Shown: piece after piece, positions 1 through 47,637 of the stretch
Position numbering within the stretch: position 1 is the stretch's first letter
Layout of the letters: the number at the start of each line of letters is the position of its first letter
Assembly (NCBI GenBank): GCA_965197745.1
Contig: CBDANS010000007.1
Coordinates: 242,985 to 306,984 of the forward strand
Reading direction: 5' to 3'
DNA: 64,000 bases
Source: Opitutales bacterium
GTDB lineage: Bacteria > Verrucomicrobiota > Verrucomicrobiia > Opitutales > PNEW01
Notes under the pieces: generated by a model
Seen by the model: only the letters and a program-made list of their open reading frames with translations
Database searches by the model: none
What the model was told of the DNA's origin: nothing
Translations under genes and position numbers: made by a program

Positions 1-589
1 CTCCTGCCTCAGCCATGTCGGTATCGTAAAAATCGACATATATTTTCTCTTCCTGGTCACCCAGGGAGATTACTTGAGATACATTACCGAGACGAAGTAA
101 TTTATCGTGGACCTCTTCGGTGAGTTTTTTTAATTTTGCATAGGTGATATCTTTTCCTGAAACGGTAACAATTGTGCCGTAAACCTCACCATACTCGTCG
201 TTCAAAACAGGTTCCTGTACCCCTTCAGGCAAATCACTTTTTACCCGATCAATTTTGCGTTGTAACCGTGACCAGATAGGACGCATTTTCTGGTGGCGAT
301 CCGCTATTTTGACTAAAATTATCGAAGCATTTTTTCTTGAGATACTGTGCGCAAACTCCACTTCCGGCACTTCCCTTACCGCTTCTTCGATTTTCCGTGA
401 AACCAAGCTCTCGACTCTTTGAGCTGATGCACCGGGATATATAGTGACAATTAAGGTGTATCGAAAGACGATTGGTGGGTCTTCAGTACGCGGCAACTGC
501 ATAAAAGCAATAATTCCCCCTATAAATAAAAAAAATGAGGTCAAAAGAGTGAATCTTGCCTCTTTCAGCGCAATAACCGTAAGTTTCAT
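1..589 (-). CDS. RND (AcrB/ACR_tran family) efflux transporter permease, N-terminal fragment; gene runs off the left edge
   Basis: Absent from the ORF track because no stop lies in the window. The reverse-strand ATG at 589-587 translates to MKLTVIALKEARFTLLTSFFLFIGGIIAFMQLPRTEDPPIVFRYTLIVTIYPGASAQRVESLVSRKIEEAVREVPEVEF... This is the TM1 plus first periplasmic porter subdomain pattern typical of RND pumps. Confidence 0.7.
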   Translation of the reverse strand, partial: MKLTVIALKEARFTLLTSFFLFIGGIIAFMQLPRTEDPPIVFRYTLIVTIYPGASAQRVESLVSRKIEEAVREVPEVEFAHSISRKNASIILVKIADRHQKMRPIWSRLQRKIDRVKSDLPEGVQEPVLNDEYGEVYGTIVTVSGKDITYAKLKKLTEEVHDKLLRLGNVSQVISLGDQEEKIYVDFYDTDMAEAG

Positions 590-1350
590 ATAATTGAATC
601 CTGATGGAGAATAACCATAATTGATTTTATTTCTTTTGGTAGATTTCCGATCCTCGGTCAATCCAACTTATACACCTTATTATTGCTTTGTTTGTCAGAA
701 AGGCATCATTCTAACGGATTTTCTATCTTCTCCCTTTGCTTATTGACTGATAGCCTTATTTTTTCCAAAAATGGGCTTTAATTGTGTTTGGCAGTTATCT
801 TAAATGATAAATGGTCATAATATTCTTTAAAAATTAATAATGATTCTTATTGAATAATTATAAATTAGCTACATTAACGATGATCATCAGTAGAAATGTT
901 TACCGGATATGTATATCGATTTTGTTAACGGACAGAACCGATGGCGATTGTTGGTATCTAATTAACCTGCCAGAAATGGCATGAAATACCAGAGTGATTC
1001 TGCAGGTTCTTTTCGAGAGCTATAATAGTTTTCAGTATCCAATAAACGTCGAACTAAATTTTGAAAGATAAGTGAACAAACCCGGCCCGATGATCGTAAT
1101 TGATCACCTGCACAATCTTATTCCAAGAGACCTTCACTTGGATAGCTTTTTTATGATTAATAAAGCTGACACGAGAAGCATTTTGAGAACATCAATTCAC
1201 AGTTTCTAATCTGAATTTTTTATCATTTACCTAGACAAGAGAAGGGTCCAAAGCATTAAGATTAATTGAGAATTATAGTATGAAAATTGTGTATCGAATG
1301 CATGCTCTAGAGAAGAGCAGGCCTAGCTCTTTATTGTGGGAGGCAACCGA

Positions 1351-4300
1351 ATGATTAATCAAGGGAAGCGCCCCATAGCGATCATAGGAATAGGTTGCCG
1401 GTTTCCTGGTGGTGCAAAGAACTCAGCCTCTTTCTGGACCTCATTGCGCAATGGCCAGAATGCTATAGTCGAAGTTCCTGAGGATCGCTGGAATCTACAG
1501 CGATTTTATGATCCCAATCCTCAATTGCCGGGTAAAATGACAACCCGTTGGGGGGGGTTCCTCGATACCATTGATCAGTTTGATGCTCAATTCTTTGGAA
1601 TTTCGCCCCGCGAAGCATTGAGGATGGATCCTCAGCAGAGATGGCTGCTGGAAGTGGCATGGGAGGCACTCGAAGATGGAGGATTAGCTCCCGATCAAGT
1701 AGCAGGGTCACGCACCGGTGTTTTTGTCGGCATTTCAAGCAATGATTATGCGAATATCCAAATGAAAGGGCCCCAGGATGTTGATATGTATACCAACAGT
1801 GGGAGCACCCTGAGCATAGCTTCTGGCAGAATTTCTTATTTGTTTGATTTAAAGGGTCCAAGCCTGTCGGTTGATACCGCATGTTCATCGGCTCTTGTTG
1901 CCGTAAATCTTGCCTGCAATAGTATCTGGGATGGGCAGTGTGACACAGCTCTGGCAGGTGGAGTAAATGCACTGCTAACCCCTGATTCTTCTATAGGATT
2001 CAGCAAAGCGTCCATGCTGTCACCTGACGGCCGGTGTTACACCTTCGATGAACGGGCAAATGGTTATGTGCGTGGTGAAGGAGCGGGGTTAATCGTGCTC
2101 AAGCCGTTGGACGATGCACTGGAAGATGAAGATCCCATTTATGCCGTAATTCGCTCTAGCATTGTGAATCAAGATGGTCGCACGAGTTCAATGACGGTGC
2201 CGGGGCAATTTTCTCAGGAAGCTATGTTGAACGAAGCTTATGAACAAGCGGGAATCTCGCCGTCGAGAGTTTGTTACATAGAAGCGCATGGCACGGGAAC
2301 ACCGGTAGGGGACCCGATTGAAGTTCTTGCCTTAGGGAATATTTTGTCCAAGGGAAGAAAAGCTGAAGATAAATGTGTAATTGGGTCGGTTAAAACGAAT
2401 ATTGGTCATTTAGAATCTGCATCAGGTATAGCGGGTCTTATAAAAGCGGCACTGGTTCTAAAATATAAAGAGATTCCTCCTAATTTACATTTTGAAACCC
2501 CCAATCCCCATATTCCCTTTGAAAAACTTAAACTACGGGTTCCAACAAAGTTAGAGTCAATCCCGAAAGGATCAGACCCGGCGGTGGTCGCCGTTAACTC
2601 TTTTGGTTTTGGAGGCACTAATGCCCATGTGGTATTAGAAGAAGCGCCGGTCATCGCTAAAAGACGGAAAAAAATAAATAAAGATGATGCCCCCAGGCCC
2701 TACCTTGTCCCTCTATCGGGAAAAGGACAGCAGTCATTAAAAAAGAGTGCTGAGAATCTGGTTGATTTACTATCCGGACAATCGAATGGCACTGAAATAT
2801 TCCTGCCTGATCTTGCCCACACGGCAAGCTTGCGCAAGGGGCACCATGACCATCGATTAGCACTCGTTGCGTGTTCGGAAAATGAAGTTATAGTAAAGCT
2901 TAATGGGTATCTTTCCGAGAATAAGGTGAAAGGCCTTGTTGAAGGAAGAGCAAAAACTGAAAATCAAAAAGAAATTGTTTTTATATTCACCGGTCAGGGT
3001 CCGCAATGGTGGGCGATGGGGCGTGAACTTTTGGAAAAAGATCCGTTATTTCGTAAAAAGATAGAAAAGTGTGACAAACTGTTGAGCGAATACACCTCCT
3101 GGTCACTCGTTGAAGAATTATCCCGAGATGAAGCCAGTTCCAGGATAGACGATACATCCGTTGCACAACCGGCGATTTTCGCTTTACAAATAGCCTTAGC
3201 TGATTGGTGGAAGGCGAGGGGCGTGTCCCCCACCTGTGTTATCGGGCATAGTGTAGGCGAGGTTGCTGCCGCTTACTGTTCCGGAATCTATACCCTCAAC
3301 GATGCCATCAAGATAATATATCACCGCAGTCACTTACAAGCAACAACGCGCGGCTCGGGACGTATGGTAGTGGTGGCCATTTCACCGGATAAAGCTAAGG
3401 CCTTAATTCAGGGGTTTGAAGATCAAGTGACGATTTCCGCGATCAACAGTCCGGGCCTTGTGACTTTAGCCGGAGATACAAAAGTTTTGGAATCAATAAT
3501 CGAACCGCTTGAAAAAGATCAGGTATTTATCCGCTGGCTGGATGTCGATTATGCCTTCCATACAAATAAGATGGACCCTATTAAGGACGATTTACTTCAA
3601 GTCCTTTCAGAGATCAGACCACGCGCTTCAAAAATTCCCTATTACTCAACCGTCAGCGGAGAGGTTATGGACGGAAAGAAGTTAGACGCCAGCTATTGGT
3701 GGCGTAATATACGTGAAACCGTACTTTTTGGTCCGGCGATAGACGTTATTATTAGTAAGGATCACGACCTTTACCTGGAATTGGGCCCGCATCCTTCGCA
3801 TTCCAGTTCTGTCTTAGAATGTCTGGCCCACAAAGGGAAGAATGGATCGGTTTTGCCCTCGTTGCGACGAAAAGAGTCGGATCAGCAGACTTTGCTTGAA
3901 ACTCTAGCCACTTTATATACCCGGGGATATCCCATCCAATGGGATGCGCTCTATGGAAAGGAAGGACAATTTGTTCAATTGCCATCCTACCCCTGGAAGT
4001 CTGAACGACTATGGTTAGAATCACCCGTCTCTGAAGAGTACCGTTTTGGATCCATTGTGCATCCCCTCCTCGGGGAAAAAGTAAATGCTCCGAGCCCAAC
4101 ATGGGAATGCGAGCTTGATCCCCGCGCCTTACCCTACCTCGCCGATCACAGACTTCACGATTCCATGGTATTTCCAGGCGCCGCCTATGTTGAGATCGCG
4201 CTCGCGGCCCTTAATGAGCTATATCCCAATGAACCTTTTGTCATTGAAGATATCAAAATTCTTAAAGGGTTGTTCATGTCAGAAGACGGTGTCATTACCA

Positions 4301-7300
4301 TTCAAATGGTCTGTGATAAAACTGATGATTCCTTTAATATATTCAGTTCTACGGATACGACTGCTGGGGAATGGGAAATTCACGCCCAGGGACGCTATCA
4401 GAAATTAGCACCGCGTGATCCTGGCAATTTGGCTGTCGATCAAATTAAAGACGCGATGGAGGAGGAGATCGATCACGCCAAAATTTATTCAGATTTTGAT
4501 GATGTTGGATATCAGTTCGGTCCCTGCTTCAGAGAAGTACAAAAAATCTGGAGAAAAGATGGGGAATCGTTGGCTGAGATTCAGGTAACAGACGCGGTTT
4601 TAGAAGATATGGAGTCAAACTTCTTTCAACCTGCAGTTTTGGATGCCTGCTTTCAAAGTGGCAAGGAATCCAGAGTTAAGGATGAAAACAGAAAGGCACG
4701 CGACAATTTTTATATGCCTATCGCTCTGAAAAGAGTGAGGTTCTTTAAAAGTCCGACTCCCCGTCTTTGGTGTTATACGCAATTAGTGAGCGACGAAGGA
4801 GACCGCGTTGAATATGATCTTAAAGTCGCCAATGACGATGAATCTATCATCGCCGAGATCAAAGGCTTTTGCGTTCAGCGGGTAGATCAGTCTGAGACAA
4901 AAGCAGAAGAGGATCTCGAAAATTGCTATTATCAATTTCACTGGCATCCCTCATCGCTTCCCGGAGCGCGGCGTGACCCAATTGAACTCATAAGTCCCGA
5001 ACGGCTTATAGAAGTATTGGATCCTGAAATTATCCCTACCTACGATAAATATAATCTTGATGGTTACGTTAGTGATTTTATGCCTCAAATGGAAACTTTG
5101 AGCTTTAATTTCATTCTCACGGCTCTCCGAAAAATGGGATGGAAGCCGGCAATAGGTGATCGGGTATCGATTGACAGTTTAATCGAAGAATTGGGCATCA
5201 TGGAGCAACATCACCGCTTATTGCAGCATTCCATATTTGAGACATTGAAAAAAGAAGCGGTGATTCAAGCGACCGAGGATGGAGAATGGGAAGTAGCCCG
5301 TACCCCTGATTCATTAAATTTAGAAGATCTATGCAGTGCCCTAAGAAATAACTTTCCTCACTTATGGGCGGAAATGGATTTGCTCATAGATTGTGGGTAT
5401 GTTCTGGCAGAAGTGCTTACGGGTGAAAAAGATCCGCTCGATGTCATTTTTCCTGCCGGTGATCAGAAAAAAATTGAAAGTTTTTATAAGGATTCTTCTG
5501 ACTTTCAGGCCTACAACAGCTTGCTCCAAAAGGCCATCGACAAGCTTGCCAGTGAGCTGCCAGAAAAGGGCAAGCTGCGTATTCTGGAAATTGGAAGTGG
5601 CACCGGTTCTTTGACGGAAAGCTTGCTTGAAGTCTTATCCCCCGATCGTACCGAATATTACTTTACCGACATATCTCCCTTATTCATCGCATCGGCGAAA
5701 GAAAATTTTAAAAATTATGATTTTATAGAATATAGTATTCTCGATATTGAGAAACCACCGGGAGAGCAGAAATTTGATCTCCAATCATACGATTTGGTTT
5801 TAGCTACGAATGTCCTGCACGCCACTAAAGATTTAAAGCAAACACTCCGTCATATTAATCAGCTGATGACGGAAGAAGGCCTTTTGCTATTTCTCGAAGT
5901 TACGACTAAAAGGTTATTTTTGGATCTGGTTTTTGGTCTGCTTCCCGGCTGGTGGAGATATTCAGACGATGAATTGCGGACGACACATGCTTTGATTACT
6001 CGCCAGGAGTGGGAGGGGCTTCTTAATGAAAGTGGTTTTCGAAACGTAAATTCCTTTGTCAATACAATGGAGGAAAGCCACGCCAATCAATCCGTGTTCT
6101 TAGCCAACGCCTCCGAGCTTTTAACGGAGATGGATCGCAAAGAAGCCATCGATGAATCCTCAGATAAGAATAAAACCTGGTTGATTTTCGCTGATCAAAG
6201 CGGTTTTGCCGAGTCTCTAGTGAATCAAATGGAAGAGAGGGATAGCACATGTATCATGGTTACCCCGGGTGAATCCTTTGTCGAGGTGGGAGAACGCTGC
6301 TACCAGATTCATCCCGAACAATTGCAAGACATGGAGGATCTATTCACTCATCTCGAGCTTGATCCGAATGCCCTGCAAGGAATTATTCACATGTGGAGCC
6401 TTGACCATCCCACCGCTGATATAACAACACCTGAATCTCTCGAACTTGCTCAACAAACAGGATGCCTCAATGTTTTAAATCTCATTCAAACGCTTGTGAA
6501 ATCAGAGCCCGATCCCGCACCACGGGTTTGGATGATCACGCACGGCATGCAGTTGGTTTCCGATACGGATAGAAACGAACGCATTGCTTCAGCTCCTTTA
6601 ATCGGGCTCGCCCGGGTCGCCAATAATGAGCATTGGGATTATCACTGGACAGCTATTGATCTGGAATCTTCGAGCACTCCATTGGAATTAGAATTTTTAG
6701 TTAATGAGATCTGTTCTGCGGACGATGAATTGGAAATTGCTTACCGTGGAGGGGAGCGGTTTGTTAATCGAATAGAGAAAACGGTTAAGGATGAAATACC
6801 AGCAAGAACAAAAGATGCGGTAAGACGTGATGGGGTAATTCCTTACCGACTCGAGATACCGACTCCCGGAATTCTTAATAATTTACGATTAAATGAGACA
6901 GAGCGCAGCGCGCCAGGACCTCAGGAAATAGAAATAAAAGTTGCTGCGGTCGGCCTGAACTTCCGTGACGTGATGAAAGTTTTAGGCATGTACCCGGGTA
7001 ACAGCAGAGATTTGAAGTGGCTTGGGGACGAATGTTCGGGAACCGTTGTTTCTGTTGGTGAAGAAGTGAAAAATTTCCAGGTGGGTGATGAAGTTATAGG
7101 CATGATGGTTCCCTATTGTTGTCGATCTTACGCCATCGTGAATGAGGCACTTGTTTTTCACAAACCTTCCAAGCAGTCATTCGAAGAGGCCGCGACCCTG
7201 CCGATTGTTTTCCTCACCGCGCATTATACTTTGAACCATTTAGCCCACCTTCGTAAAGGTGAGAAAATATTAATACACGCGGGTGCAGGCGGTGTCGGCC

Positions 7301-10300
7301 AGGCTGCTATTCAAATGGCTAAGCACATCGGGGCCGAGATTTTTGCAACCGCAGGTTCACCTGAAAAACGTGAGTTTCTTAAAAGCCAGGGAATAGCCCA
7401 TGTCATGGACGACAGGACATTGGATTTTGCTGATGAAGTCATGGAAATTACTGAAGGGAAAGGTGTCGATGTCGTATTGAACCAATTGGCTGGTGACTTT
7501 ATCACGAAGAGTTTATCGGTGCTCGCTCCCTTTGGAAGGTTTCTGGAAATCGGGAAAGTAGATATCTATCAAAACACAAAAATTGGGCTCGAACCATTTA
7601 AGAAGAACCTGACCTATTTTGCCGTTGATCTTTCGAAACATATAGAAGAACGACCCGAGATAATTACCATGATGCTTCAAGAGTTATCGGTAATGTTTGA
7701 AAGAGAAGAGCTGAAGCCATTACCGTTTAAAGCATTTCCTATCACACAAGCAGTCGAGGCTTTCCGTTATTTTGCTCAATCGAAACACATCGGTAAAAAT
7801 GTACTCTCACTGCAAGAGGATTCTATCCTTGTTGGCTTGCCTTCCGAGCAAAAAACACTGTTCCGTGCTGATGGAACATACCTTATCACCGGTGGATTAG
7901 GGGGATTCGGTCTGGAAGTTGCCAAGTGGATGGTAAAATCAGGGGCGAAAAATTTAGTCCTCATGGGACGTTCGGGTGCATCGACCGATGATGCCATGGA
8001 AGCTTTACAGACGATGCGAAATAACGGCGCCCAGGTGGTAGTGGCCAAAGCCGATGTAGTCATCCATGACGATGTAGAACGCGTCTTAAACAAGATCGAT
8101 GAGGAAATGCCTCCTTTAAAGGGGGTCATTCATGCTGCTATGGTTTTGGATGATGGATTCCTTGTTCAGATAGACACTGAGAAATTCAAAAAGGTACTGC
8201 GTCCAAAAATGATAGGCGCCTGGCATTTACATCAGCTGACTCAGCAGATGCATATAGATTTCTTCGTGCTCTTTTCTTCTGCTTCGTCAATGCTTGGACC
8301 GAACGGACAGGGAAACTATGCTTCGGCCAATTTCTTCCTGGATGCGCTCGCCCATTATCGCAATGCCATGGGTCTTCATGCCCTCACGGTCAACTGGGGT
8401 GCATTATCCGAAGCCGGATACGTGGCCCGGAATGAAAACGTTGCCAAGTATCTGGATATTCTGGGCCTGGAAAGTTTCACTCCGCAGGAAGCACTCAGCA
8501 TTTTTGCTCAAATCCTGCCGAAAAATCCAGTTCAACTGGGAGCTTCCCATGTGAACTGGAAAACGATTTCAAAGATAAATCCACAGATGGGTAGTTCGAA
8601 GTTGTTCTCCCTGGTTATAAGCCAGGATGCACTTTCAGAAAAGACCGGAGCCCACGCCCATTCATTCAGGCCTCAACTTCTTGGCGCTGCGCCTGAAGAC
8701 CGGCATAAAATGGTAGAGAATTATATAAGTGAACAGGTAGCTCAAGTCTTTGGCACCTCAGCCGATAAAATTGATCGCGATACACCCCTGACCACGATTG
8801 GCCTCGATTCATTGATGGCCATAGAGTTGATGAACCGCCTGGAATCTAATTTAGGAATTAATTTGCCCATGGGTAAATTCCTGCAAGGGCCGAATATTTC
8901 TCAACTTGCCATTCCCGTTCTCGAATTACTGGTTAAGTCTGATTCCGGTTCGGATACAGCGAGTTCGCCTCGAAATGTAACGGCGGGAGAAGAATTGATG
9001 GAGTTTCCCTTATCCCAGGGACAACGAGCGCTCTGGTTTTTACACCGCCTCGCGCCAAGCAGCGCTGCCTACAACCTGGTCTTCAGTTCGCGCATTACTC
9101 CTTATGTCGACATTGACATTATGAAAAAGGCTTTTGCCCGTATCTTTCATTCCCATCCGATGCTCGACATTGTTATCTCCACGGTCGATGGAGAACCCAT
9201 GCAGACATTGCAAAAAGGACGCAGTGTCGATTTTCGAGAACACGATGCAACCCAACTTAGCGATGATGAACTTAAGGCATTGCTCGTAGAGCACGCGCAT
9301 AAACCCTTCAATCTTCAAACCGGCCCGGTTATCCGTTTGGAGCTGTTCCGTACTGCGACGGGGTCCCATGTGACGCAACTGGCTATGCACCACATTGTTT
9401 CCGATGCATGGTCTATCGTGATTGTTCTCAACGAGCTCATGGAAACTTACTTGGCCATCAAGGCCGGTCGTGAGCCTGACGTTCAACCCCCTGAATTCAG
9501 GTATTCAGACTATGTAAACTGGCAGAAAAACCTCTTGCAAAGTCCTGAAGCTGATCGTTTGGGCAGTTATTGGTATGAATATCTCGCAGACTCATCGATG
9601 GTCCTTGATTTACCCACGGACCACCCGCGTCCACCAGTCCAGTCTTTTAACGGCGCGACCTTTGGTTTCAAACTTGAAGAGGACCTTACGCAGAAGGTTT
9701 TGAAACTGGCTGAGGAGAAAAGAGTCACCCTTTATACTACCCTTCTGTCCGTATTTAATATTTTAATGCATCGTTATTGTAATCAAGAGGACATTATCAT
9801 CGGGAGTCCTTTATCCGGACGTATAAATAAAGAATTTCATCATATTACCGGTTATTTTATCAATCCCGTTGCGTTGCGTAGCAGAATGGGTGATGACCCC
9901 GCTTATTTTGATTACCTGGATCGTGTCTATCAATCGGTAATTGGCGCTTTAGAAAATCAGGATTATCCATTTCCACTTCTTGTCGATCGACTTAAAGTAA
10001 AGCGTGATCCCAGTCGATCGCCTATATTCCAGGCCAGCTTTTCTATGGAGAGAACACCTGGAGTTGATGATCAGGGCATAGCTGTATTTCTTATTGGTCA
10101 GGGCGGGCATAAATTTAATGCCGAAGACATGGTGATCGAGTCGATAGATCTTACTTTGCGCATGGCACAATTTGAGATTACACTCGTGGTGGAAGAAGCA
10201 GGGGGCAATATTTACGGCTGCTGGCAATATAACAGCGATCTGTTCGAGCCTGAAACGATTAGTCGTCTTAGCGGTTTTTATAAACAGTTGCTTAACGAAA

Positions 10301-13300
10301 TCGTATCTCATCCTGAGAAAAAGATTTCCGAGTTTAATTTGCTTTCAGCGGATGAAGAAAAACAGGAAATAGTAGACTGGAACGCAACTGCCTCTAAATA
10401 TCCTGAGCATTTATGCCTCCACCATATTATCTCTGACCAGTCAGCTAAAACACCCCATTCAACGGCGATCAGTTTCGATGGGGAATCCATGACTTATGAG
10501 GAATTGGAGAGAAAATCAAACGGCCTGGCCCTAGCATTACATCAGAAAGGTATCGGTCCGGACACCCCCGTTGGGCTCTATCATGAACGGTCCATGAACA
10601 TGGTTGTCGGGTTACTAGGTATACTTAAAGCTGGTGGTTGTTATGTGCCTCTGGATCCAGAATTCCCACCCCTCAGGCTGGAACAGATGCTCGACAATGC
10701 AAACCCATCTGTGGTGGTTACACAAAGCGAACTGGCGAGTGCCTTACCTCAAGGTCAATGGGAATCTATCTTTGTCGAAGAAGTGAGTGAGGCGGAGACA
10801 ACACCTCAAGTCGATGGCCTGAATCCCGATTCGCTTGCTTATATTATTTATACATCCGGGTCTACAGGCGTGCCAAAGGGTGTGGAAATTTCCCATCAGT
10901 CTCTGGTTAACTTTTTATATTCAATGCAGAGGGAGCCAGGTTTAAGTGATGAGGATAAACTTTTAGCAGTAACGACACTTTCTTTTGATATTTCAGGATT
11001 GGAACTCTACCTGCCACTGATTTCCGGTGCTCAGGTTATTCTGGCCTCTCGTAAAGTCGCAGCTGATGGCAGACAGCTGGCAGCTCTCATAAAAAGCACC
11101 AATCCCACCATTATACAGGCTACCCCGGCTACCTGGCAGATGTTACTGGATTCGGGCTGGTACGGAAAACAAAACCTTCGGATACTTTGTGGAGGTGAAC
11201 CCCTACCACCGGATTTGGCGGAGCATTTATGTGAAATGGGTGCGGAAGTTTGGAATCTTTATGGTCCGACCGAAACAACCATCTGGTCTACGGCGTCACA
11301 AATTGAAAAAGGTGATGATGTCGTCTCTATCGGCCGCCCCATCGCCAATACAAAAATATACATTTTAGATGAGGAAGAAAAACCCCTTCCCACGGGCTTT
11401 GCCGGCAATCTTTACATTGGCGGTGACGGTCTGGCCCGAGGCTATCACAAACAACCTGAGCTCACTAAGGAATCATTTGTTGAGTTGTCGTTAAATCAGC
11501 AGGAAACTGAGCGCGTATACAAAACCGGTGACTTAGCGCGCTATTTATCCGATGGCTCAATTGAATGCATTGGTCGCCGCGACTCTCAAATTAAACTGCG
11601 TGGTCACCGTATCGAGCTAAGTGAAATCGAAACGGTGCTTCGTGATCATCCCGCTGTAAAAAGTGCTTTGGTCCTGATGCGCAAAGATATGCCGGGAGGT
11701 CCGGGTATTGCCGCTTATATTATACCCATGGAAAATAACGACAGATTAGTTCCGGATCTGCGATCACACCTCACTGAGCGCTTGCCTCAATATATGCAGC
11801 CTTCTGCTTATATGGTCCTCGATGAATTCCCGCTCACCCCCAATAATAAAATTGACCGCAATCATCTCCCGCTTCCCTCTTTAAAGCGTTCCGATTTGCG
11901 AACAGATTATTTGGCACCCCAAACGCCGACTGAGAAGATTCTCTGTGATATATTAAATCAGGCTTTCAAGAGTGATAAGATTGGCATTCACGACAATTTC
12001 TTCGAGTTGGGTGGCGATTCACTAATGGCGGTGGAAATATTGTCGAGTATCACTTCCGCTTTTAACCGTGAATTACCGATTGAGGTCTTTTTGCGCAATC
12101 CTACGGTGGAAAGTCTGGGCTATTATTTTGAACTCACTCCCGAAAATATTGAGGTGAATTCCTCCCCCCATAAGAATGGAGATTCAAAGGTTAATAACAT
12201 TGATGACTTGTTTAAAAGCAGTTATCTGGATATCGAGCATGTAAATGGTAAAAATGGGGATCGCACTAAGTTCCCTGAGGTGGATGCCGTTGCTCTTGCT
12301 TACATCCCCGATGCTTTCCTCCCCCTCACGGGTCTTTCCAAAGATGAAATTTCACGTCAGTGGTTTCAACATCAGCCTTTTGTCAGCAATTACTACGAGA
12401 CTCCATTTGGAAAAATCGCTATCGTCATGTTACCGCGGTTAGGAGCTGAACTTTACAAAGATCAAGTGCCTCTCGGTGATAATATCTTAAGCTCCTTAAA
12501 ATTGGCTGCCGATATGGGGGCCAGTACCGTATCCCTGACCGGCCTCATCCCCTCGGCTACTGACTATGGAAGAAGTATCTCACACTGGATAAACGGCCAC
12601 GACAATTTACCCGCCATAACTACGGGGCACGCCACAACCACAGCAACGATCGTGAAAACGATTACCGGTATGCTTGAGCAGACAATGCGTGACTTCAGTG
12701 AGGAAAAAATTGCCATCGTCGGTTTGGGATCCATCGGCTATGCCACACTGCGACTTATGCTTGAAGTGATGCCGCATCCGGTTGAGCTTATCCTCTGTGA
12801 TCTTTACCGAAAAGCGGACATTCTTGAGAATATTAGAAGTGAACTGATTGAAAAGGTTGGCTTTAAAGGAGCTATCCGTGTGGTGACAACGCGAGGCCAA
12901 TTGCCCGACGCCATATACGATGCATCTTTTGTCCTTGGGGCCAGCAATGTTCCTGGTATCCTGGATATCAATCGCCTGCGTCCCGGCACCTTATTGGTAG
13001 ACGATTCATTTCCACCTTGTTTCCGTCTCACCGATGCGATCAGACGAATTGAAGAAGAGCAGGACATTCTCTTTACAACCGGTGGGTTGTTGCGCTGTTC
13101 GGAAGAAATTAAAGAGACTATATATCTGCCGGATGGAGCCGGTGAGTTATTCTCTAAATTAGGGGTTGATAAAGTGCAGAGACTGGCTGGACGCGACCCA
13201 CGCGAAATCACGGGATGTATCCTTTCCAGTCTCTTAACCGGACACGAACCGAATATTTCTACTACGATTGGACCAGTGGAAATCAAGGACTCACTCGCTC

Positions 13301-13434
13301 ACTATAAACTTCTCGAAAAGTTGGGACTGGAGTCAGCAAGACCGCAATGTGAAGGCTTCTTTATCGATGACGTAATTATCGAACGATTCAAGAAACGCAA
13401 CGGATCACATACCGTTCAGACTGAATCCGTTTGA
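1351..13434 (+). CDS. Hybrid type I polyketide synthase / nonribosomal peptide synthetase: KS-AT-DH-cMT-(psiKR)-ER-KR-ACP-C-A(Gly)-PCP-AAR-like reductase domain
   Basis: The 4032-aa track ORF starts at GTG 1336. I prefer ATG 1351, which is preceded by GGGAGG (1338-1343) with a 7-nt spacer. Motifs, in track numbering: KS DTACSS (C183), EAHGTGT (H318), NIGHLE (H358). AT GHSVGE (S639) and YAFH (739-742). DH HPLLG / [17 protein letters not shown] (H938) and DACFQ (D1103). cMT [8 protein letters not shown] (1417-1424). ER [11 protein letters not shown] (1981-). KR [8 protein letters not shown] (2185-), LDD (2271-2273), Y2328. ACP GLDSL (S2492). C MHHIVSD (2684-2690). A [12 protein letters not shown] (3172-) and NNKIDR (K3505). 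PCP GGDSL (S3562). Terminal Rossmann motif VGLGSIG (3795-3801). Confidence 0.95.
   Translation: [4027 protein letters not shown]
1366..2646 (+). other. Ketosynthase (KS) domain of the megasynthase
   Basis: The Cys-His-His triad is intact: DTACSS (C183, nt 1882-1884), [15 protein letters not shown]. It ends with [13 protein letters not shown]. Confidence 0.9.
2971..3921 (+). other. Acyltransferase (AT) domain, probably malonyl-specific
   Basis: [14 protein letters not shown] (S639), and YAFH at the specificity motif. The xAFH form leans malonyl (HAFH) rather than methylmalonyl (YASH). Confidence 0.85.
4048..4890 (+). other. Dehydratase (DH) domain
   Basis: HPLLG start, catalytic His in [17 protein letters not shown] (HxxxDxxxxP variant of HxxxGxxxxP), and a DxxxQ motif (LDACFQ). 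Confidence 0.8.
5353..6105 (+). other. C-methyltransferase (cMT) domain, SAM-dependent
   Basis: SAM motif I [14 protein letters not shown] (nt 5581-), followed by [12 protein letters not shown] and EEGLLLFLE motifs. It sits between DH and ER as in FAS and HR-PKS enzymes. Confidence 0.8.
6838..7815 (+). other. Enoylreductase (ER) domain, MDR family
   Basis: [15 protein letters not shown] start, NADPH motif [18 protein letters not shown], and C-terminal HIGKNVL. Confidence 0.85.
7861..8430 (+). other. Ketoreductase (KR) catalytic subdomain, B-type
   Basis: [19 protein letters not shown] Rossmann motif, LDD motif (HAAMVLDDG), catalytic Tyr in GQGNYASAN. Confidence 0.85.
8698..8925 (+). other. 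Acyl carrier protein (ACP) domain
   Basis: The phosphopantetheine attachment site [13 protein letters not shown] is verified at nt 8809-8811 (tca = S2492). Confidence 0.85.
8998..10320 (+). other. NRPS condensation (C) domain
   Basis: [12 protein letters not shown] start and active site [10 protein letters not shown] (HHxxxD). Confidence 0.85.
10393..11865 (+). other. NRPS adenylation (A) domain, predicted glycine-activating
   Basis: Core motifs [61 protein letters not shown]. Hand extraction of the 10-residue code against GrsA numbering gives D-I-L-Q-L-G-L-I-W-K. Confidence 0.8.
11923..12135 (+). other. Peptidyl carrier protein (PCP/T) domain
   Basis: [14 protein letters not shown], with Ser3562 verified at nt 12019-12021. 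Confidence 0.85.
12268..13431 (+). other. C-terminal Rossmann domain resembling long-chain acyl-ACP reductase (AAR); putative non-canonical reductive release domain
   Basis: [29 protein letters not shown] (GxGxxG, nt 12721-), [31 protein letters not shown], and [17 protein letters not shown] (Cys3961, nt 13216-13218). These follow, in order, the recalled AAR blocks [11 protein letters not shown] / [14 protein letters not shown] / [10 protein letters not shown]...VLIDGGYP / MFACFAEAMLLEFEG. There is no TE GxSxG motif and no SDR R-domain GxTGFLG motif. Confidence 0.55.
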
Positions 13435-13458
13435 TTCATCCCATCAAGGAATTTTAGC

Positions 13459-14580
13459 GTGGAGTCGACATTGCTGCATCCGTTGTGCGGAAGCAATCTG
13501 ATTACATTTCTACGTGCTTTTGCCCGCCCGCGTCCTCTTTGTTGGCAAAAGCTGCCTGTGGGGTTTATCGCGGCAGCATCAGTTTTGGGACGATTTCCCT
13601 TTTATCAGTTCGAACGCTTATCACAAGCACGTGCTATTATACAAACCCCATTACCAGCGGAACCCATTTTTATCATTGGACACTGGCGTAGCGGCACGAC
13701 ACACCTGCACAATCTCATCAGTCAGGATTCACAATTTGGATCGATCAGTTTCCTTCAAACTGCATTGCCCTGGGACTTTATCGGCCAGGTCAATTTATCT
13801 CAGAAAATTCTCCGTAAGAAACTCCCCGACGATCGGGGGATGGACAAGGTAAAACTGACAATCGATTCCCCACAAGAAGAAGAGATGGCTCTGGGAAATA
13901 TGGGTCCACTATGTTATTATTACTGTTATTATTTTCCCCGGGAAATTGAAGAACACTTTAATCGGGCGGTCCTATTCAACGGAGTCTCATCAAGCGAAAT
14001 AAAAAACTTTGAAAATAATTACTGCTATCTTTTAAAAAAACTGACCCTGTTTCATGGAGATAAGAAAAAGCTGCTTTTAAAAAATCCCGCAAACACCGGT
14101 CGCATACGTTGGCTGCGGAGTATTTTTCCAGGCGCTAAGTTCATTCATATTCATCGCAATCCTTACACGGTCTATGCCTCAACCCTAAAGCATTTTAATA
14201 GAACCATGACGACTTTCGCCTGGCAGCCCTATGAGGGAATTGACTTTAATAAAATTACCCTGCGTCACTATCGCCTTCTCATGCAGCGTTACTTGGATGA
14301 GCGATCAACTATCCCCCCGGAAAACTTAATTGAGGTATCTATGGATGAAGTAGAGAAAGATGCGCCCGGGGTGATCGATAACATATACCGAAAATTTTCT
14401 TTGTCCAATCGGGATAGGGCGCTTGAAGCAATTAATTCATACTGCGAAGGACAGCGAAATTACCGTAAGAACAGTTATGTATTAAGCGGGGATCAAGTTG
14501 CTAATATAAATAAACACTGGGACTTTACGTTGAAAGAATATGATTACGGAATGCCGGGTGAAATAAAGGTGGAAAACTGA
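13459..14580 (+). CDS. Sulfotransferase family protein (PAPS-dependent, Sulfotransfer_3-like)
   Basis: 373 aa. 5'-PSB loop IFIIGHWRSGTTHLHNL and 3'-PB region FIHIHRNPYTVYAS. GTG start with AAGGA 8 nt upstream, only 24 nt after the megasynthase stop. Confidence 0.8.
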   Translation: MESTLLHPLCGSNLITFLRAFARPRPLCWQKLPVGFIAAASVLGRFPFYQFERLSQARAIIQTPLPAEPIFIIGHWRSGTTHLHNLISQDSQFGSISFLQTALPWDFIGQVNLSQKILRKKLPDDRGMDKVKLTIDSPQEEEMALGNMGPLCYYYCYYFPREIEEHFNRAVLFNGVSSSEIKNFENNYCYLLKKLTLFHGDKKKLLLKNPANTGRIRWLRSIFPGAKFIHIHRNPYTVYASTLKHFNRTMTTFAWQPYEGIDFNKITLRHYRLLMQRYLDERSTIPPENLIEVSMDEVEKDAPGVIDNIYRKFSLSNRDRALEAINSYCEGQRNYRKNSYVLSGDQVANINKHWDFTLKEYDYGMPGEIKVEN

Positions 14581-14582
14581 AT

Positions 14583-16565
14583 TTAGAGGCGATTCTTAAC
14601 CAGCATTTCGACTACTTTCGGGTCCGCAAGAGTCGTCGTATCTCCTATCTCATCCGGTGCATTCTCCGCAATTTTTCTTAGAATGCGACGCATGATCTTT
14701 CCCGAGCGGGTTTTCGGCAGACCGGGTGAGAACTGCAGTTTATCAGGGGTGGCAATGGGTCCAATCTCGGAACGCACATGTTTTACCAGTTCCTGTTTTA
14801 AGTCATCGCTCCCTTCCACCCCTCCGATGAGCGTGACAAAAGCATAGAGAGATTGACCTTTTATGTCGTGGGGCATTGGGGCGACCGCTGCTTCTGCTAC
14901 CATGGGATGACTGACTAAGGCGCTTTCAACTTCGGCTGTTCCAATCCGATGACCGGAGACATTGACAACATCATCGACGCGGCCCATCAGCCAGTAATCC
15001 CCATCACTATCAATACGGCAACCATCGCCGGTAAAGTAGAGATCATTAAAGGTGTTAAAATATGTATCGATAAAGCGATCATGATCACCCCAGGTGGTAC
15101 GCATTATCCCGGGCCAAGGTTTTTTGATACAGAGTTTACCGCCTTCATTGGGATTACATTCACTACCATCATCCCGCAATATTACAGGTTCGACTCCAAA
15201 GAAAGGGTGTGAAGCACTTCCCGGTTTTAAAACGTGAGCGCCCGGATAGGGGGTAATCAAGTGACCCCCTGTTTCCGTTTGCCACCAGGTATCGACAATG
15301 GGACAAGAGCCATGACCAATTTCCCGAAAATACCACATCCAGGCCTCTGGGTTGATCGGTTCTCCCACCGTCCCCAACAGCCGAAGTGAACTTAAATCAT
15401 ACTTAGCCGGCCATTCATTGCCCTGGGCGATCAATGCGCGAATCACTGTAGGGGCGGTGTAGAACACCGTTGCCTTGTATTTTTCACATACCTGCCAAAA
15501 ACGGCCTGGATCAGGATAAGTAGGGACCCCTTCGAACATGAGACTCGTCGAACCGTTGGCCAGCGGCCCGTAGACAATGTAACTATGTCCTGTCACCCAT
15601 CCAATGTCAGCTGAACACCAATATATGTCATCCTCGTGAATATCAAAAATATATTTATGCGTGAGACTGGTGTGTAGGAGGTAACCTGCCGTGGAATGAA
15701 CCACCCCTTTCGGTTTACCCGTTGAACCCGAGGTGTAGAGAATAAAGAGAATCGTTTCGGCACTTAAAGCCTCAGGCGGGCAGTCTTCGTTTACCTTGCT
15801 CATTTCATCGTGATACCACAGATCGCGACCTTCAATGAAATCACACGGTTCATCATTACGCTTAACCAAAATGACCTTTTCGATAGAGGGTGTATTTTCG
15901 AGAGCCTTATCAGAGATATTTTTCAGGAGGATAAATTTTCCTGAACGCAAAGCTACATTGGAGGTGATTAGTATTTTACAATCAGAATCATTAATACGAT
16001 CTGCCAGTGAATCCGCGCTGAAACCCCCGAAAACCACAGAGTGGATAGCGCCGATACGGGCACAACCAAGCATTACGATAGGCAACTCGACTATCATTGG
16101 CAGATATATCGCAACCCGGTCACCTTTTTTTATGCCATGTGCTTTTAGCACGTTGGCAAATTTACAAACTTCTTTATGTAATTCCTCGTAGGTAAGTGTC
16201 CGCGTGTCTTCTTCAGGTTCTCCCTGCCAGATCAGTGCCGGTTTTGTCCGTCGATCGGTTTTCAAGTGTCGATCAAGACAGTTTATGGTAATATTTATTT
16301 CACCATCTTCAAACCATGTATGCTCTATTTTACGTGCCTTGGAATCCCAGGTATATTTGCATGCGGTGCCAGGCGCTTTAATCCAGTCCAATGTCTCAGC
16401 CTGCTCTAACCAGAAAGCATCGGGATCATTTACCGAACGTTCATACATTTCGCAGTATTTTTGATTATCAATATGCGCTTTCTCCACGAATTGCTCGGAG
16501 GGGGGAAAGGTGCGCTCCTCGGTCATTAATGAATCGGTCGATATAGTCTGTTTTTCTTCTGCCAT
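14583..16565 (-). CDS. acs: Acetyl-CoA synthetase (acetate--CoA ligase)
   Basis: 660 aa with the typical Acs layout: ...YCEMYERSVNDPDAFW..., YTSGSTGKPKGV, WWQTETGG, and C-terminal LPKTRSGKIMRRILRKIA. Confidence 0.95.
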   Translation of the reverse strand: MAEEKQTISTDSLMTEERTFPPSEQFVEKAHIDNQKYCEMYERSVNDPDAFWLEQAETLDWIKAPGTACKYTWDSKARKIEHTWFEDGEINITINCLDRHLKTDRRTKPALIWQGEPEEDTRTLTYEELHKEVCKFANVLKAHGIKKGDRVAIYLPMIVELPIVMLGCARIGAIHSVVFGGFSADSLADRINDSDCKILITSNVALRSGKFILLKNISDKALENTPSIEKVILVKRNDEPCDFIEGRDLWYHDEMSKVNEDCPPEALSAETILFILYTSGSTGKPKGVVHSTAGYLLHTSLTHKYIFDIHEDDIYWCSADIGWVTGHSYIVYGPLANGSTSLMFEGVPTYPDPGRFWQVCEKYKATVFYTAPTVIRALIAQGNEWPAKYDLSSLRLLGTVGEPINPEAWMWYFREIGHGSCPIVDTWWQTETGGHLITPYPGAHVLKPGSASHPFFGVEPVILRDDGSECNPNEGGKLCIKKPWPGIMRTTWGDHDRFIDTYFNTFNDLYFTGDGCRIDSDGDYWLMGRVDDVVNVSGHRIGTAEVESALVSHPMVAEAAVAPMPHDIKGQSLYAFVTLIGGVEGSDDLKQELVKHVRSEIGPIATPDKLQFSPGLPKTRSGKIMRRILRKIAENAPDEIGDTTTLADPKVVEMLVKNRL

Positions 16566-43363: not shown

Positions 43364-44614
43364 TTATTCGGGAGAAAACGCAGCGACTTTTATAAAGGCA
43401 TCATCAGCCATACAAATAGCCGCATCGATATCTGATTCCTGGTGAGCGGCGTTAACGAACCAATTGTGGTGGGGGTGAAAAAAAACACCGTTTTCCATAC
43501 AATATCCACTAAATTTTTGCATGCGCATTAAATAGGATTCTCCATAAAAACGCATGTATGGTAAAGCGGGCGGTCCAGAACATTTTACTTCAATTCCATG
43601 TTTTGCCGCAGCATTCTCCAGACCCTGCGTGAGACGTCTGCCCATATTCTCGAGGTGTTCAACAACCTTATCTCGCTTGAGAATATGAAGGCAGGTTAGA
43701 GCAGCCGCCATGGGCACTGCACTGAACCAATAGCTGCCTGTCATAAAAACCTTGCTTGCGGCCTGTTTAATATCTTCACGTCCGAGCGCGGCAGAAAGGG
43801 GGTAGCCGTTGGCAATCGCCTTACAGTAACAGGCAATGTCAGGAGTAAAATCAAATACCCGGTGTGAACCCCCGTGATGGAGGCGAAATCCAGCCCTTAT
43901 GTCGTCGAGAATTAATACGATGCTTTCACTTCTACAGGTATTCTCGATCTCCTTTAAATACCCCTCCGCCGGCAATAGGGAATCAGCAGCGCCAGGGTGA
44001 TGGTATGGAGTCGTAAATACAGCCGCAATTTGATCTTTGTGTTGTGTAATCAAATCGTGGAAGCTTTTTAAATCATTCCATTTATAGGTGTGGGTGTGAA
44101 CATGATCTTCCTCAATGGAACCGCTCGTTACCCGCTGGGAACACCAGGAGGCGGTGCCATGGTAAGCGCCCTCGACGGTCAGGACTTTTTTACGACCAGT
44201 ATATTCACGTGCGATTTTAGTAGCCCAGTGTATCATGTCAGATCCGTTTTTCCCAAAGACAGCCCAATCGGCAAAATCTATCGTATCTACAAGATATTCA
44301 GCTAATTCAACGAACCGTTCGCTGGGATGATTGAAACAATCCCCAGCTTTACTTTGTTCATCGGCTGCAGCGCATACTTCAGCGTTATTATGACCTAAAA
44401 TGATGGGGCCATAACTGCAGAGGAAATCAATGTATTCGCGTCCATCGATGTCCCAGTAACGACAGCCGTCAGCGCGAGCCGCAAAATAGGGCGCAATTCC
44501 TGGTACGGTGTTTGCGGGACTGTTATGACCGTAGATCCCGCCGGGAATGACTTGAACCGCGCGTTCAAATAGTTTTTGAGTGTTTTTTGCAAGCTTCGGC
44601 GCTTTAGTTTCCAT
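43364..44614 (-). CDS. Class III PLP-dependent aminotransferase (glutamate-1-semialdehyde aminomutase-like)
   Basis: 416 aa. N-terminal GGIYGHNS...YFAARADGCRYWDIDGREYIDFLCSYGPIILGH. Length and motif order fit the aminotransferase class III family. The substrate cannot be inferred. Confidence 0.75.
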   Translation of the reverse strand: METKAPKLAKNTQKLFERAVQVIPGGIYGHNSPANTVPGIAPYFAARADGCRYWDIDGREYIDFLCSYGPIILGHNNAEVCAAADEQSKAGDCFNHPSERFVELAEYLVDTIDFADWAVFGKNGSDMIHWATKIAREYTGRKKVLTVEGAYHGTASWCSQRVTSGSIEEDHVHTHTYKWNDLKSFHDLITQHKDQIAAVFTTPYHHPGAADSLLPAEGYLKEIENTCRSESIVLILDDIRAGFRLHHGGSHRVFDFTPDIACYCKAIANGYPLSAALGREDIKQAASKVFMTGSYWFSAVPMAAALTCLHILKRDKVVEHLENMGRRLTQGLENAAAKHGIEVKCSGPPALPYMRFYGESYLMRMQKFSGYCMENGVFFHPHHNWFVNAAHQESDIDAAICMADDAFIKVAAFSPE

Positions 44615-45389
44615 GATTGAGATATAATGAAATACGATCGCTGATCAGCCCCAGGCGTTCGGCTAAGGTGATATCTCCTTCAATGCGTAAAGATCCCAAT
44701 CCAATTTCCGCCATGTTGATTATTTTGTTACGAAATGCCGCTAATGCAATATTGGAATCTTCAAATATAATTTTTACGTCCGGGGAGTGGGGAGGTGCGC
44801 CCTTACCGTGATTGATTTTACCTCCCTTCCATTGAATCCAACCGGTAATATCACAGTCATTGATTGTTAAATATGCCAGTCCCTCCGGTGTCGCTTTTAT
44901 GAGTTGACGGGATGTCTCTTCGTTTTCACCTAACTCTTTTGTCGCCGCTAAAATGATCCCGAAGAGGATTTTTAAATGCTTAGCACGAAATGCCGAATCC
45001 TCCAGAGTGTTGGCGTCCGGTTGCACGTATTTTGTAAAAAGAGTGCTTAGGTGTTTAAATATAATCAGTTGCTTTATCCGCCAGCACCCCCGCGTTATTA
45101 AAGGAAAAGCAAAACCGCTTTGATTAAACATGTGGTTAAGTTGTCGCTCGGAGAGGAAAACCATTTTTATCGCTTTTGCATTATCGTTCGCTCCCATAAA
45201 CTCGCAGCAACCGTTCTCAAATTTAATCACAGCATTTAATTGAGAGCGTGTGCTGATAGAGATGGAAAAATTCGTTTTTCCGAGGATTTGCTTAGCCTCA
45301 GGAACCACCGTCATAAAATCCTCGAAAGCGTAAAGGACAGCGTTAAGATGCAATCGACAAAGAATATGATCTTCAGCAGCGGAATTCAT
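44604..45389 (-). CDS. Hypothetical protein, no family recognised
   Basis: 261-aa ORF. Its stop overlaps the downstream aminotransferase start by 11 nt, and it begins 8 nt after the upstream GT stop. Coding status is supported by this operon context only. Confidence 0.5.
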   Translation of the reverse strand: MNSAAEDHILCRLHLNAVLYAFEDFMTVVPEAKQILGKTNFSISISTRSQLNAVIKFENGCCEFMGANDNAKAIKMVFLSERQLNHMFNQSGFAFPLITRGCWRIKQLIIFKHLSTLFTKYVQPDANTLEDSAFRAKHLKILFGIILAATKELGENEETSRQLIKATPEGLAYLTINDCDITGWIQWKGGKINHGKGAPPHSPDVKIIFEDSNIALAAFRNKIINMAEIGLGSLRIEGDITLAERLGLISDRISLYLNHGN

Positions 45390-45397
45390 CGATCTAT

Positions 45398-46510: not shown

Positions 46511-46676
46511 TATGGTGTAAAAGGTGGATCTGAAACCTGCCTATTCTAATTCCACTTGATTTTATGTTGGGTGCAAATCATTTAGTCCATGGGTATTCGA
46601 GTTATGGCGTAATTATTTGTTATCTATGGTCATGCCTGTTGACTTAGAGACTTAAACGAACGATAATTAAAACGCC

Positions 46677-47606
46677 ATGTTGATCGCATCGCGTAAGCAG
46701 GTCTACTCTTTAGCGTCTCCCAGCGCTGGTTACATTCCGGAGGCGATAGGGGATGAAAAAACTATCCTGTGTCTGCACGAGGGAAAAGATCTGTCCGTTA
46801 TTGTATATGAAGGAGGTGAACTCGCATTACGTTCAAATGGTCATACCCATAATGTTCATTCCGATGTAGTGGAATCGATTGAATGCGTCACCATCATAGG
46901 CGAAGTCCCCCCGCTGGTATTAATGGGAACGGAAGCGCCTCATCTCTATCAAATTTCAGATAATGGTAAACCAGCAAAACGTATGATTGCATTTGATCAA
47001 CTTAATGCTCGCGATCAGTGGTATACACCGTGGGGAGGTCCTGCCTCCGTGCGCAGCATCGCCCACACAGGCGATTGGGTCTATGCCGATATCCACGTTG
47101 GCAGCATCATGCGTTCCCCCGATCGTGGCACTACCTGGGAACCGGTGAAACCAACCTTACACGAAGATGTCCACCAGGTAATTACCTCTCATCTTGCCGA
47201 AACGCGTGTTTATGCCAATACGGCAGACGCTGTTTATGTCAGCGAGGACCATGGGAACTCATGGGAACATCGTGCCAGTGGTCTGAGCGCTCGCTATGGT
47301 CGTGCCATCGCAGTGCATCCCCATGAACCGGACTGCCTCCTCGCAACCGTGAGTCAAGGTCCCGGATCTGATGTTAATGGTCAGCTCTATCGCTCAGATA
47401 ATGTGGGGCGCACCTGGTCCCATGTTACTTCCGGGTTTCCTCCTTCAACCTATAATAATATCGACACATTCCAGGTCACTTTTTCATCAGATGGCACGGC
47501 ATGGGCGGTAGTAGAAAAGGTCCTTTATAAAAGTGATGACCGGGGTAATACCTGGGAGATCTCCTGGGAAGCTTCGGATGAAATAATAATGCTTTCATGC
47601 GCATGA
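46677..47606 (+). CDS. BNR/Asp-box repeat beta-propeller protein (sialidase / Ycf48-like fold)
   Basis: Four Asp-boxes (SxDxGxTW): SPDRGTTWE, SEDHGNSWE, SDNVGRTWS, SDDRGNTWE. Confidence 0.75.
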   Translation: MLIASRKQVYSLASPSAGYIPEAIGDEKTILCLHEGKDLSVIVYEGGELALRSNGHTHNVHSDVVESIECVTIIGEVPPLVLMGTEAPHLYQISDNGKPAKRMIAFDQLNARDQWYTPWGGPASVRSIAHTGDWVYADIHVGSIMRSPDRGTTWEPVKPTLHEDVHQVITSHLAETRVYANTADAVYVSEDHGNSWEHRASGLSARYGRAIAVHPHEPDCLLATVSQGPGSDVNGQLYRSDNVGRTWSHVTSGFPPSTYNNIDTFQVTFSSDGTAWAVVEKVLYKSDDRGNTWEISWEASDEIIMLSCA

Positions 47607-47637
47607 TCATCACTTGTCCACTCAGAGAATTTTAAAT

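Follow-up and report, generated by a model that had tools for sequence, protein, structure and literature searches.

A stand-alone sulfotransferase and a PKS-NRPS megasynthase with a putative terminal amidation domain form a conserved gene pair in Verrucomicrobia that probably makes a sulfated lipid

Tailoring sulfotransferases encoded beside assembly lines are already known. Those of the sulfazecin, cylindrospermopsin (CyrJ) and glycopeptide (StaL) pathways are stand-alone enzymes dependent on 3'-phosphoadenosine 5'-phosphosulfate (PAPS), lie by nonribosomal peptide synthetase (NRPS) or polyketide synthase (PKS) genes and decorate the product; they belong to clusters of many genes, some of which also provide for the supply of PAPS. 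A different arrangement is known from CurM and the olefin synthase (OLS), where the sulfotransferase is a domain between ACP and thioesterase (TE) that sulfonates the beta-hydroxyacyl-ACP, after which the TE carries out a decarboxylative elimination. Here we describe a stretch of 64,000 nucleotides (nt) from an Opitutales bacterium (contig CBDANS010000007.1, positions 242,985 to 306,984; the window in what follows), in which a stand-alone sulfotransferase gene follows the gene of a hybrid PKS-NRPS megasynthase whose C-terminal domain is homologous to the putative terminal amidation domain (TAD). Like the tailoring enzymes named above, to which we liken it by description and not by sequence, the window sulfotransferase is stand-alone and encoded beside an assembly line, whereas their clusters hold many genes and the cassette in the window consists of two genes only.

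The TAD used for comparison here is that of CarI. This NAD(H)-binding domain is folded like AAR and carries an invariant cysteine within reach of the PCP arm; Rankin et al. give 757 TAD homologues in RefSeq (bioRxiv 10.1101/2024.10.28.620694). No in vitro activity of this domain was obtained, and it was not reconstituted (Rankin et al., bioRxiv 10.1101/2024.10.28.620694). The products of TAD pathways, carmabin, vatiamide E-F and hectoramide B, end in a primary amide (bioRxiv 10.1101/2024.10.28.620694). As for stand-alone sulfotransferases, the available part of PMC13449962 gives the substrate of Stf1 as unknown and describes ErSULT from Eubacterium ramulus as a PAPS-dependent enzyme that sulfates 3- and 16-hydroxyhexadecanoic acid in vitro.

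In the window the megasynthase reading frame stops with TGA and the GTG start codon of the sulfotransferase gene comes 24 nt later, preceded at a distance of 8 nt by an AAGGA (Table 1). The original prediction had named this spacing and ribosome-binding site as well as both PAPS-binding motifs, and the sequence confirms all of these. The open reading frame (ORF) lies far beyond chance, since it matches Pfam Sulfotransfer_3 (PF13469) with an E value of 1.4e-29 (104.4 bits against a cutoff of 27, residues 69-316), has more than 5600 homologues and gives an AlphaFold2 (AF2) model with pLDDT 89.8 and pTM 0.90. By sequence and model the protein is thus a stand-alone PAPS-type sulfotransferase with predicted transfer activity. 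Its two binding motifs occur in the correct order. When aligned with 29 homologues, G74, H75, W76, R77, S78, G79 and T81 of the 5'-phosphosulfate-binding (5'-PSB) loop are all invariant, as are R233 and S241 of the 3'-phosphate-binding (3'-PB) motif. In the same alignment the invariant Q139-E140-E141-E142, H75 and H84 stand out as candidate catalytic-base residues, and the N-terminal LHPLxGS (residues 6-12) is kept across the family. Five close relatives (L001-L005) have the same GTG, preceded by AGGA and located directly after an in-frame stop, which together with the conserved LHPLxGS indicates that the long start at GTG 13459 is genuine. No N-terminal transmembrane anchor is predicted for the sulfotransferase (maximum Kyte-Doolittle value over 19 residues, 1.15). 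The GC content of the gene (43%) matches that of the window (44.7%) and hence gives no sign of recent acquisition.

Evidence for a functional link between the two genes comes from their conserved pairing. At a sulfotransferase identity of at least about 44%, an orthologous PKS-NRPS of ~4030 aa adjoins the sulfotransferase in 15 of 15 loci (L001-L012, L089, L091 and L095), so that the synteny check proposed along with the original prediction came out in its favour, with varied downstream flanks and in two orientations. The closest relatives (L001-L005) encode sulfotransferases 68-73% identical to that of the window after a ~4030-aa PKS-NRPS, with flanks as in the window (Acs/DAO/TrpS downstream). 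Sulfotransferases that are 48-54% identical (L006-L011 and L091) still follow the orthologous synthase, and several of these loci differ downstream, L006 and L008 having LMF1/Hpt/radical-SAM there and L007 having reverse transcriptase/transposase/STAS. We rejected Acs, DAO-type oxidoreductase and DnaJ as cluster members, since they are kept only in the closest relatives and are replaced in L006-L008. Stop-to-start spacing in the readable loci (L001-L008 and L089) ranges from a 4-nt overlap, seen in L089, to at most ~70 nt. In L012 (a metagenome-assembled genome (MAG) of Akkermansiaceae, 44%) and L095 (43%) the sulfotransferase gene lies at the KS end of the synthase gene and points away from it. 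Such a synthase was not found within 10 kb of the sulfotransferase in 76 genome loci where this enzyme is 33-43% identical. In neighbour-joining trees the Opitutales PKS-linked sulfotransferases form a single clade; those of L012 and L095 group instead with a sister clade whose genes lie beside lpxB. A metagenome scan, whose best listed match was 43% identical, contributed L095, L099, L100 and L141 and did not enlarge the close clade, and a KS-based protein search, which gave only entries shorter than ~900 aa, was used for the context of L089, L090, L093 and L094. Some of the close relatives come from metagenome samples that look marine, habitat being judged here by appearance. We conclude that the sulfotransferase and the upstream megasynthase are a two-gene cassette, a coupling that is well supported, and that the two genes are almost certainly co-transcribed.

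Table 1. Features of the megasynthase-sulfotransferase locus, in positions of the window
Feature	Position	Strand	Details
AcrB-type RND transporter (N-terminal fragment), transcribed away from megasynthase	2..589	-	PF00873 E 9.6e-22
Hybrid megasynthase, 4032 aa, KS-AT-DH-cMT-ER-KR-ACP-C-A-PCP-TAD	1336..13434	+	Pfam domains, catalytic motifs intact
Adenylation domain, residues 3034-3505, code D-I-L-Q-L-G-L-I-W-K	10435..11850	+	Specificity residues from sequence, read as glycine
C-terminal TAD/AAR-like NAD(H) domain, ~410 aa, putative	12193..13431	+	PDB 9e4s/9e4x match; conserved Cys3961, codon at nt 13216
Spacer between megasynthase and sulfotransferase genes, 24 nt, TTCATCCCATCAAGGAATTTTAGC	13435..13458	+	Holds Shine-Dalgarno-like AAGGA at 13446-13450
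Stand-alone PAPS-type sulfotransferase, Sulfotransfer_3 family, Stf1/Stf9-like fold	13459..14580	+	GTG start, 373 aa; ORF, Pfam, AF2, Foldseek
5'-PSB loop WRSGTTH, residues 76-82	13684..13704	+	Invariant residues in 29 homologues
PQEEEMA segment, residues 138-144, candidate catalytic-base region	13870..13890	+	Q139, E140, E141, E142 and A144 invariant; predicted catalytic role
3'-PB motif RNPYTVYAS, residues 233-241	14155..14181	+	R233, S241 invariant

Which class of sulfotransferase is this? The best PDB matches of the family profile are Stf1 of M. tuberculosis (2zq5, E 2e-16) and Stf9 of M. avium (2z6v, E 9e-13), and Foldseek aligns the model over the whole chain with both (template modelling score (TM) 0.70 for Stf9 and 0.63 for Stf1, 368-374 aligned columns). 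The 50 best Foldseek PDB matches listed are all sulfotransferases or share the sulfotransferase fold (retinol dehydratase), with probabilities of 0.99-1.00. Stf1 and Stf9 are stand-alone proteins of ~370-390 aa like the enzyme described here, but they are only 16-17% identical to it and are not PKS-NRPS-linked; as their substrates are unknown, they say nothing about its acceptor. ErSULT shares the Sulfotransfer_3 family and a predicted Stf1-like fold, a placement in class made without direct sequence comparison and from the available part of PMC13449962. It differs in being an enzyme of a gut Firmicute, for which that part of PMC13449962 reports no assembly-line partner.

The comparison with CurM and OLS, which the original prediction had drawn, holds at the level of the superfamily, with its PAPS-binding core, and of the polyketide context, but not for any closer relationship. 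The profile matches OLS (4gox, E 2e-6) and CurM (4gbm, E 2e-4) in the C-terminal half only (profile positions ~201-322), and the TM scores to their sulfotransferase domains are 0.36-0.38. Their domains are embedded in the synthase, whereas the window enzyme is a separate ORF and Pfam detected no sulfotransferase domain inside the megasynthase. A partner thioesterase was found neither in the megasynthase C-terminus by Pfam nor among the conserved neighbours called in related loci. Moreover, the reductive loop of the synthase is apparently complete: the motifs of DH, ER and KR are intact, so that from sequence a retained beta-hydroxyl on a carrier-bound substrate would not be expected. Membership in the CurM/OLS-type mechanism was rejected, the enzyme being stand-alone, without a TE and distant in both profile and fold. 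On sequence and model grounds it is best classed as a Stf1/Stf9-type stand-alone enzyme.

The PKS part of the partner megasynthase has intact motifs in KS (DTACSS, HGTGT, NIGH), AT (GHSVG), DH (HPLLG and DxxxQ), cMT (LEIGSGTG), ER (GAGGVG) and KR (GGLGGFG, LDD, YASAN), the C domain has HHIVSD, and both carrier serines are present. The domain order lacks a loading module, hence the KS would be primed in trans or the module would act iteratively. The specificity residues of the A domain read D-I-L-Q-L-G-L-I-W-K, which we take to be the canonical glycine code (Stachelhaus code). This code is kept in L002, L006-L011, L089, L091 and L092, where position 299 is L or F and position 330 is I or V. For L001 and L003, positions 299 and 301 can be read as L and G from the sequence VLCGGE. 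The A domain would thus be specific for glycine.

After the PCP (residues 3535-3594) follows a C-terminal domain of ~410 aa in which Pfam finds no match, so that a canonical SDR thioester reductase (NAD_binding_4) was rejected. Against NCBIfam it weakly resembles the N-terminal thioester reductase region of PigE (7e-12) and AAR (5.7e-4); identity with the AAR equivalog TIGR04058 was rejected as well, with 19.3 bits against a cutoff of 449.7. A close match is PDB 9e4s/9e4x (E 7.5e-89, 40% identity over 381 residues), and Cys3961 of the megasynthase aligns to the active-site cysteine of 9e4s. We identified 9E4S/9e4x as the putative TAD of CarI by description, namely a terminal domain of ~400 aa with an AAR-like fold. 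Judged by sequence, the C-terminal domain is therefore a TAD homologue. It resembles the TADs of CarI, VatR and HcaD in its position after a PCP, its invariant cysteine and its 40% identity, and differs in that those are cyanobacterial, belong to multi-module systems and have no sulfotransferase. At 40% identity it also lies under the ~65% linking threshold of the CarI sequence cluster (bioRxiv 10.1101/2024.10.28.620694). The terminus that it releases may accordingly be an amide, an aldehyde or another group. The earlier description of this domain as an AAR-like reductase holds only as a label of distant homology; the close characterised relative is the CarI TAD, which has no demonstrated reductase activity. 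It follows that O-sulfation of an alcohol formed after aldehyde reduction, as suggested at that time, is one of several options, the domain being a TAD homologue and not an AAR.

The association of a TAD with a sulfotransferase extends beyond the orthologous cassette. In L099, L100 and L141 a TAD is followed by a sulfotransferase after a gap of 3-68 nt, with 36-39% identity to the window in the sulfotransferase and 35-41% in the TAD. L100 encodes the end of an A domain, PCP and TAD (59-1672) and, 3 nt on, the sulfotransferase (1676-2791), which are 41% (TAD) and 37% (sulfotransferase) identical to their counterparts in the window; L099 has the same layout. In L141 the TAD ends 68 nt before the sulfotransferase, an enzyme in a different part of the tree. 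The sulfotransferase is thus a recurrent partner of the TAD in lineages of the PVC (Planctomycetes-Verrucomicrobia-Chlamydiae) type, and not a universal one, given the TAD genes of L090 and L092, which stand without it.

Several other variants of the synthase were noted. In L092 (691-4540) a C-A(Gly)-PCP-TAD stands alone, lacking both PKS and sulfotransferase, with a DUF1501 gene nearby. The PKS of L090 (10001-18811) is of the type seen in the window but terminates in ACP-TAD, and neither NRPS nor sulfotransferase is present. The related PKS-NRPS of L094 (10001-21823) has a TE at its end where the others have a TAD, with a gene for an MMPL-like transporter before it. L093 (8208-17038) has a 66%-identical KS, directly upstream of which lies a sulfatase gene, and then only fragments of AT, DH, MT and ER, without KR-ACP-NRPS-TAD-sulfotransferase; the two explanations are that the cassette has decayed here or that the assembly, at 3x coverage, produced an artefact. 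In L099 (1598-5067) and L100 (2921-6407) the sulfotransferase gene is followed by genes for a DUF1501 protein and a PSCyt2/PSD1 (DUF1549/DUF1553) protein, a gene pair that is common in Planctomycetes and Verrucomicrobia.

Taken together, we consider it probable, at roughly 60%, that the cassette makes a sulfated, methyl-branched lipid derived from an N-acyl-glycine and that the sulfate is retained in the product. The highly reducing PKS module (KS-AT-DH-cMT-ER-KR-ACP) would build or extend a saturated, alpha-methyl-branched acyl chain, which the C domain would couple to glycine loaded on the PCP by the A domain. The TAD/AAR-like NAD(H) domain might then take the N-acyl-glycyl thioester on its conserved cysteine and release it, either as a primary amide, the outcome proposed for TADs of the carmabin type, or in reduced form, by analogy with AAR and PigE, as an aldehyde or an alcohol. 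The sulfotransferase would move sulfate from PAPS to the released lipid, where it would stay, and the product would be an anionic sulfated amphiphile of the lipoamino-acid type, with the neighbouring RND pump as a possible exporter. The order of these events, the retention of the sulfate and the export are what we infer from the domains and the gene arrangement. The acceptor could be a terminal alcohol (reductive release giving an N-acylethanolamine O-sulfate), a hydroxyl on the chain or a nitrogen.

A number of points weigh against this view. With a primary amide at the end and a complete reductive loop, the product predicted from sequence has no obvious hydroxyl, and a simple O-sulfation would then depend on a hydroxyl brought in by the starter unit or left by programmed skipping. 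Genes for PAPS synthesis are absent among the window ORFs of at least 150 aa and among the called neighbours in related loci, so the donor supply would be encoded elsewhere. TAD-terminated genes without a sulfotransferase exist (L090 and L092), and Rankin et al. found no consistent partner gene for the TAD (bioRxiv 10.1101/2024.10.28.620694). Finally, the retention of the sulfate cannot be derived from synteny alone. Neither the analogy to CurM nor an alcohol acceptor is established.

In another scenario, which appears unlikely to us, the sulfate would be a transient leaving group on the terminus of the product and the final product would be free of sulfur. Elimination might yield an alkene, as with CurM; starting from an N-acylethanolamine sulfate it might give a 2-oxazoline or an enamide, and starting from an O-sulfonated primary amide, a nitrile. 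An amide terminus is indeed a poor site for a stable sulfate, the connection of the sulfotransferase with TAD-terminated synthases in several lineages suggests an action on the TAD-made terminus, and the known activating sulfotransferases of assembly lines, CurM and OLS, are both among the weak profile and Foldseek matches. Yet neither a thioesterase nor any other enzyme for the elimination belongs to the conserved cassette, the distance to CurM/OLS is large in fold (TM 0.36-0.38) as well as in sequence, and a sulfotransferase-driven dehydration of an amide to a nitrile is without known precedent. Most stand-alone bacterial sulfotransferases, moreover, yield stable sulfate esters.

We would likewise give little credit at present to the stronger statement that the sulfotransferase is dedicated to the TAD as its partner and acts on the chain terminus that this domain makes. 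If it were true and the TAD makes an amide, sulfonation of the carboxamide would lead to an N-acyl sulfamate or, once an O-sulfonated imidate has lost its sulfate, to a nitrile (an N-acyl-aminoacetonitrile), and to our knowledge there is no enzymatic precedent for either reaction. Were the terminus instead an alcohol or an amine that can be sulfated, this would mark the present clade of TADs as reductases. Either way, the function of TADs would become apparent from the two-gene system.

Equally doubtful, and proposed by analogy with sulfazecin, is an action on the assembly line itself, in which the sulfotransferase would modify a carrier-bound intermediate in trans and sulfonation would be a prerequisite for release by the TAD. 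For sulfazecin, Oliver, Li and Townsend reportedly found in 2018 that N-sulfonation of the PCP-bound peptide precedes the TE-catalysed ring closure. The tight and recurrent adjacency of TAD and sulfotransferase, from a 4-nt overlap to a 68-nt gap, fits such a scheme, but an N-acyl-glycyl-S-PCP offers no evident nucleophile for sulfonation, and the TAD pathways of carmabin, vatiamide and hectoramide, together with L090 and L092, do without a sulfotransferase, which is therefore not a general TAD cofactor.

The wider family of this sulfotransferase has other neighbours. Enzymes 33-40% identical to that of the window are embedded in hopanoid clusters at many loci (L023-L088, L103-L136). Neighbour clustering and NCBIfam identified HpnA-like SDR, HpnN, HpnC, HpnH, HpnG, squalene-hopene cyclase and class-III aminotransferase in these clusters. 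In the 88 genome or contig loci that were clustered, the HpnA-like SDR occurred near the sulfotransferase 32 times, HpnN 12 times and HpnC 8 times, and the aminotransferase lay directly upstream in 8. A Myxococcales MAG (L073:3399-13052), for example, encodes squalene-hopene cyclase, an HpnC-like protein, class-III aminotransferase, two successive sulfotransferases, HpnH and HpnG. For these hopanoid-linked sulfotransferases sulfated bacteriohopanepolyols are the predicted products; our literature search on sulfated hopanoids found nothing relevant. Directly after the hopanoid-type sulfotransferases, an ORF of ~380 aa occurs in 25 loci (e.g. L032:1728-2867); it has no NCBIfam match and was called SGL/strictosidine-synthase-like from its appearance only. 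In the Verrucomicrobiales sister clade (L014, L020, L021, L022, L037, L038 and L098), lpxB follows the sulfotransferase after ~10-460 nt, its assignment as lipid-A-disaccharide synthase being based on TIGR00215 (E 2.9e-60 for L021). This gene order could mean that lipid A, or an envelope lipid related to it, is sulfated. Since relatives lie in hopanoid clusters and beside lpxB, and since ErSULT sulfates hydroxylated C16 fatty acids, lipid acceptors are plausible for the family. A tblastn screen with lpxB and hpn query proteins gave no match in the PKS/TAD-linked loci.

That the window sulfotransferase is unrelated to the megasynthase, sulfating an envelope lipid such as a lipid A or glycolipid precursor and merely travelling along, is improbable, for while the lpxB-adjacent sister clade, with which the enzymes of L012 and L095 cluster, and the more distant clades inside hopanoid clusters would suit it, the adjacency to the synthase in 15 of 15 loci despite changed downstream flanks and orientation, the operon-like spacing, the recurrence of TAD adjacency in three more divergent loci and the negative tblastn screen all speak against it.

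Regarding the surroundings, the divergent RND pump fragment at the start of the window, to which the original prediction had drawn attention, is identified by Pfam (Table 1). An RND pump adjoins the megasynthase in the window and also in L089 (67%-identical KS); a role as exporter is possible, and its membership in the cassette is uncertain. The intergenic region of 746 nt between pump and megasynthase (590-1335) has no Rfam match, as the Rfam scan of the whole window gave no hit, and a promoter and terminator scan of 400-1500 stayed at chance level, promoter-like sites included. On the other side, an acetate-CoA ligase gene (14583-16565, minus strand) is convergent with the sulfotransferase gene; the gene ends are 2 nt apart (14578-14585) and hence leave no room for an intergenic terminator. 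Farther away, a group of minus-strand genes (43364-52739) encodes a class-III aminotransferase, two ORFs without Pfam match, an epimerase, an NTP_transf_5 protein, two family-2 glycosyltransferases, another ORF without hit and a PqqD-like protein, and two PEP-CTERM proteins are encoded at 58480-60815 (minus strand). Together these look like an exopolysaccharide or PEP-CTERM-associated locus.

In conclusion, the literature that we searched contained nothing relevant on a cassette of PKS-NRPS(Gly)-TAD and a Stf1/Stf9-like sulfotransferase, or on PKS-linked sulfotransferases in Verrucomicrobia. The sulfotransferase-megasynthase pair probably makes a sulfated lipid, and the cassette predicts a family of sulfated metabolites of the lipoamino-acid type from uncultured Opitutales-like Verrucomicrobia. 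For a subset of TADs, the sulfotransferase of the window is the first neighbour to have been seen recurrently. With only two genes to express in a heterologous host, the system is a tractable way into the release chemistry of these domains. At the same time the enzyme belongs to a large uncharacterised, lipid-associated family of sulfotransferases, other branches of which lie in hopanoid and lipid A neighbourhoods.

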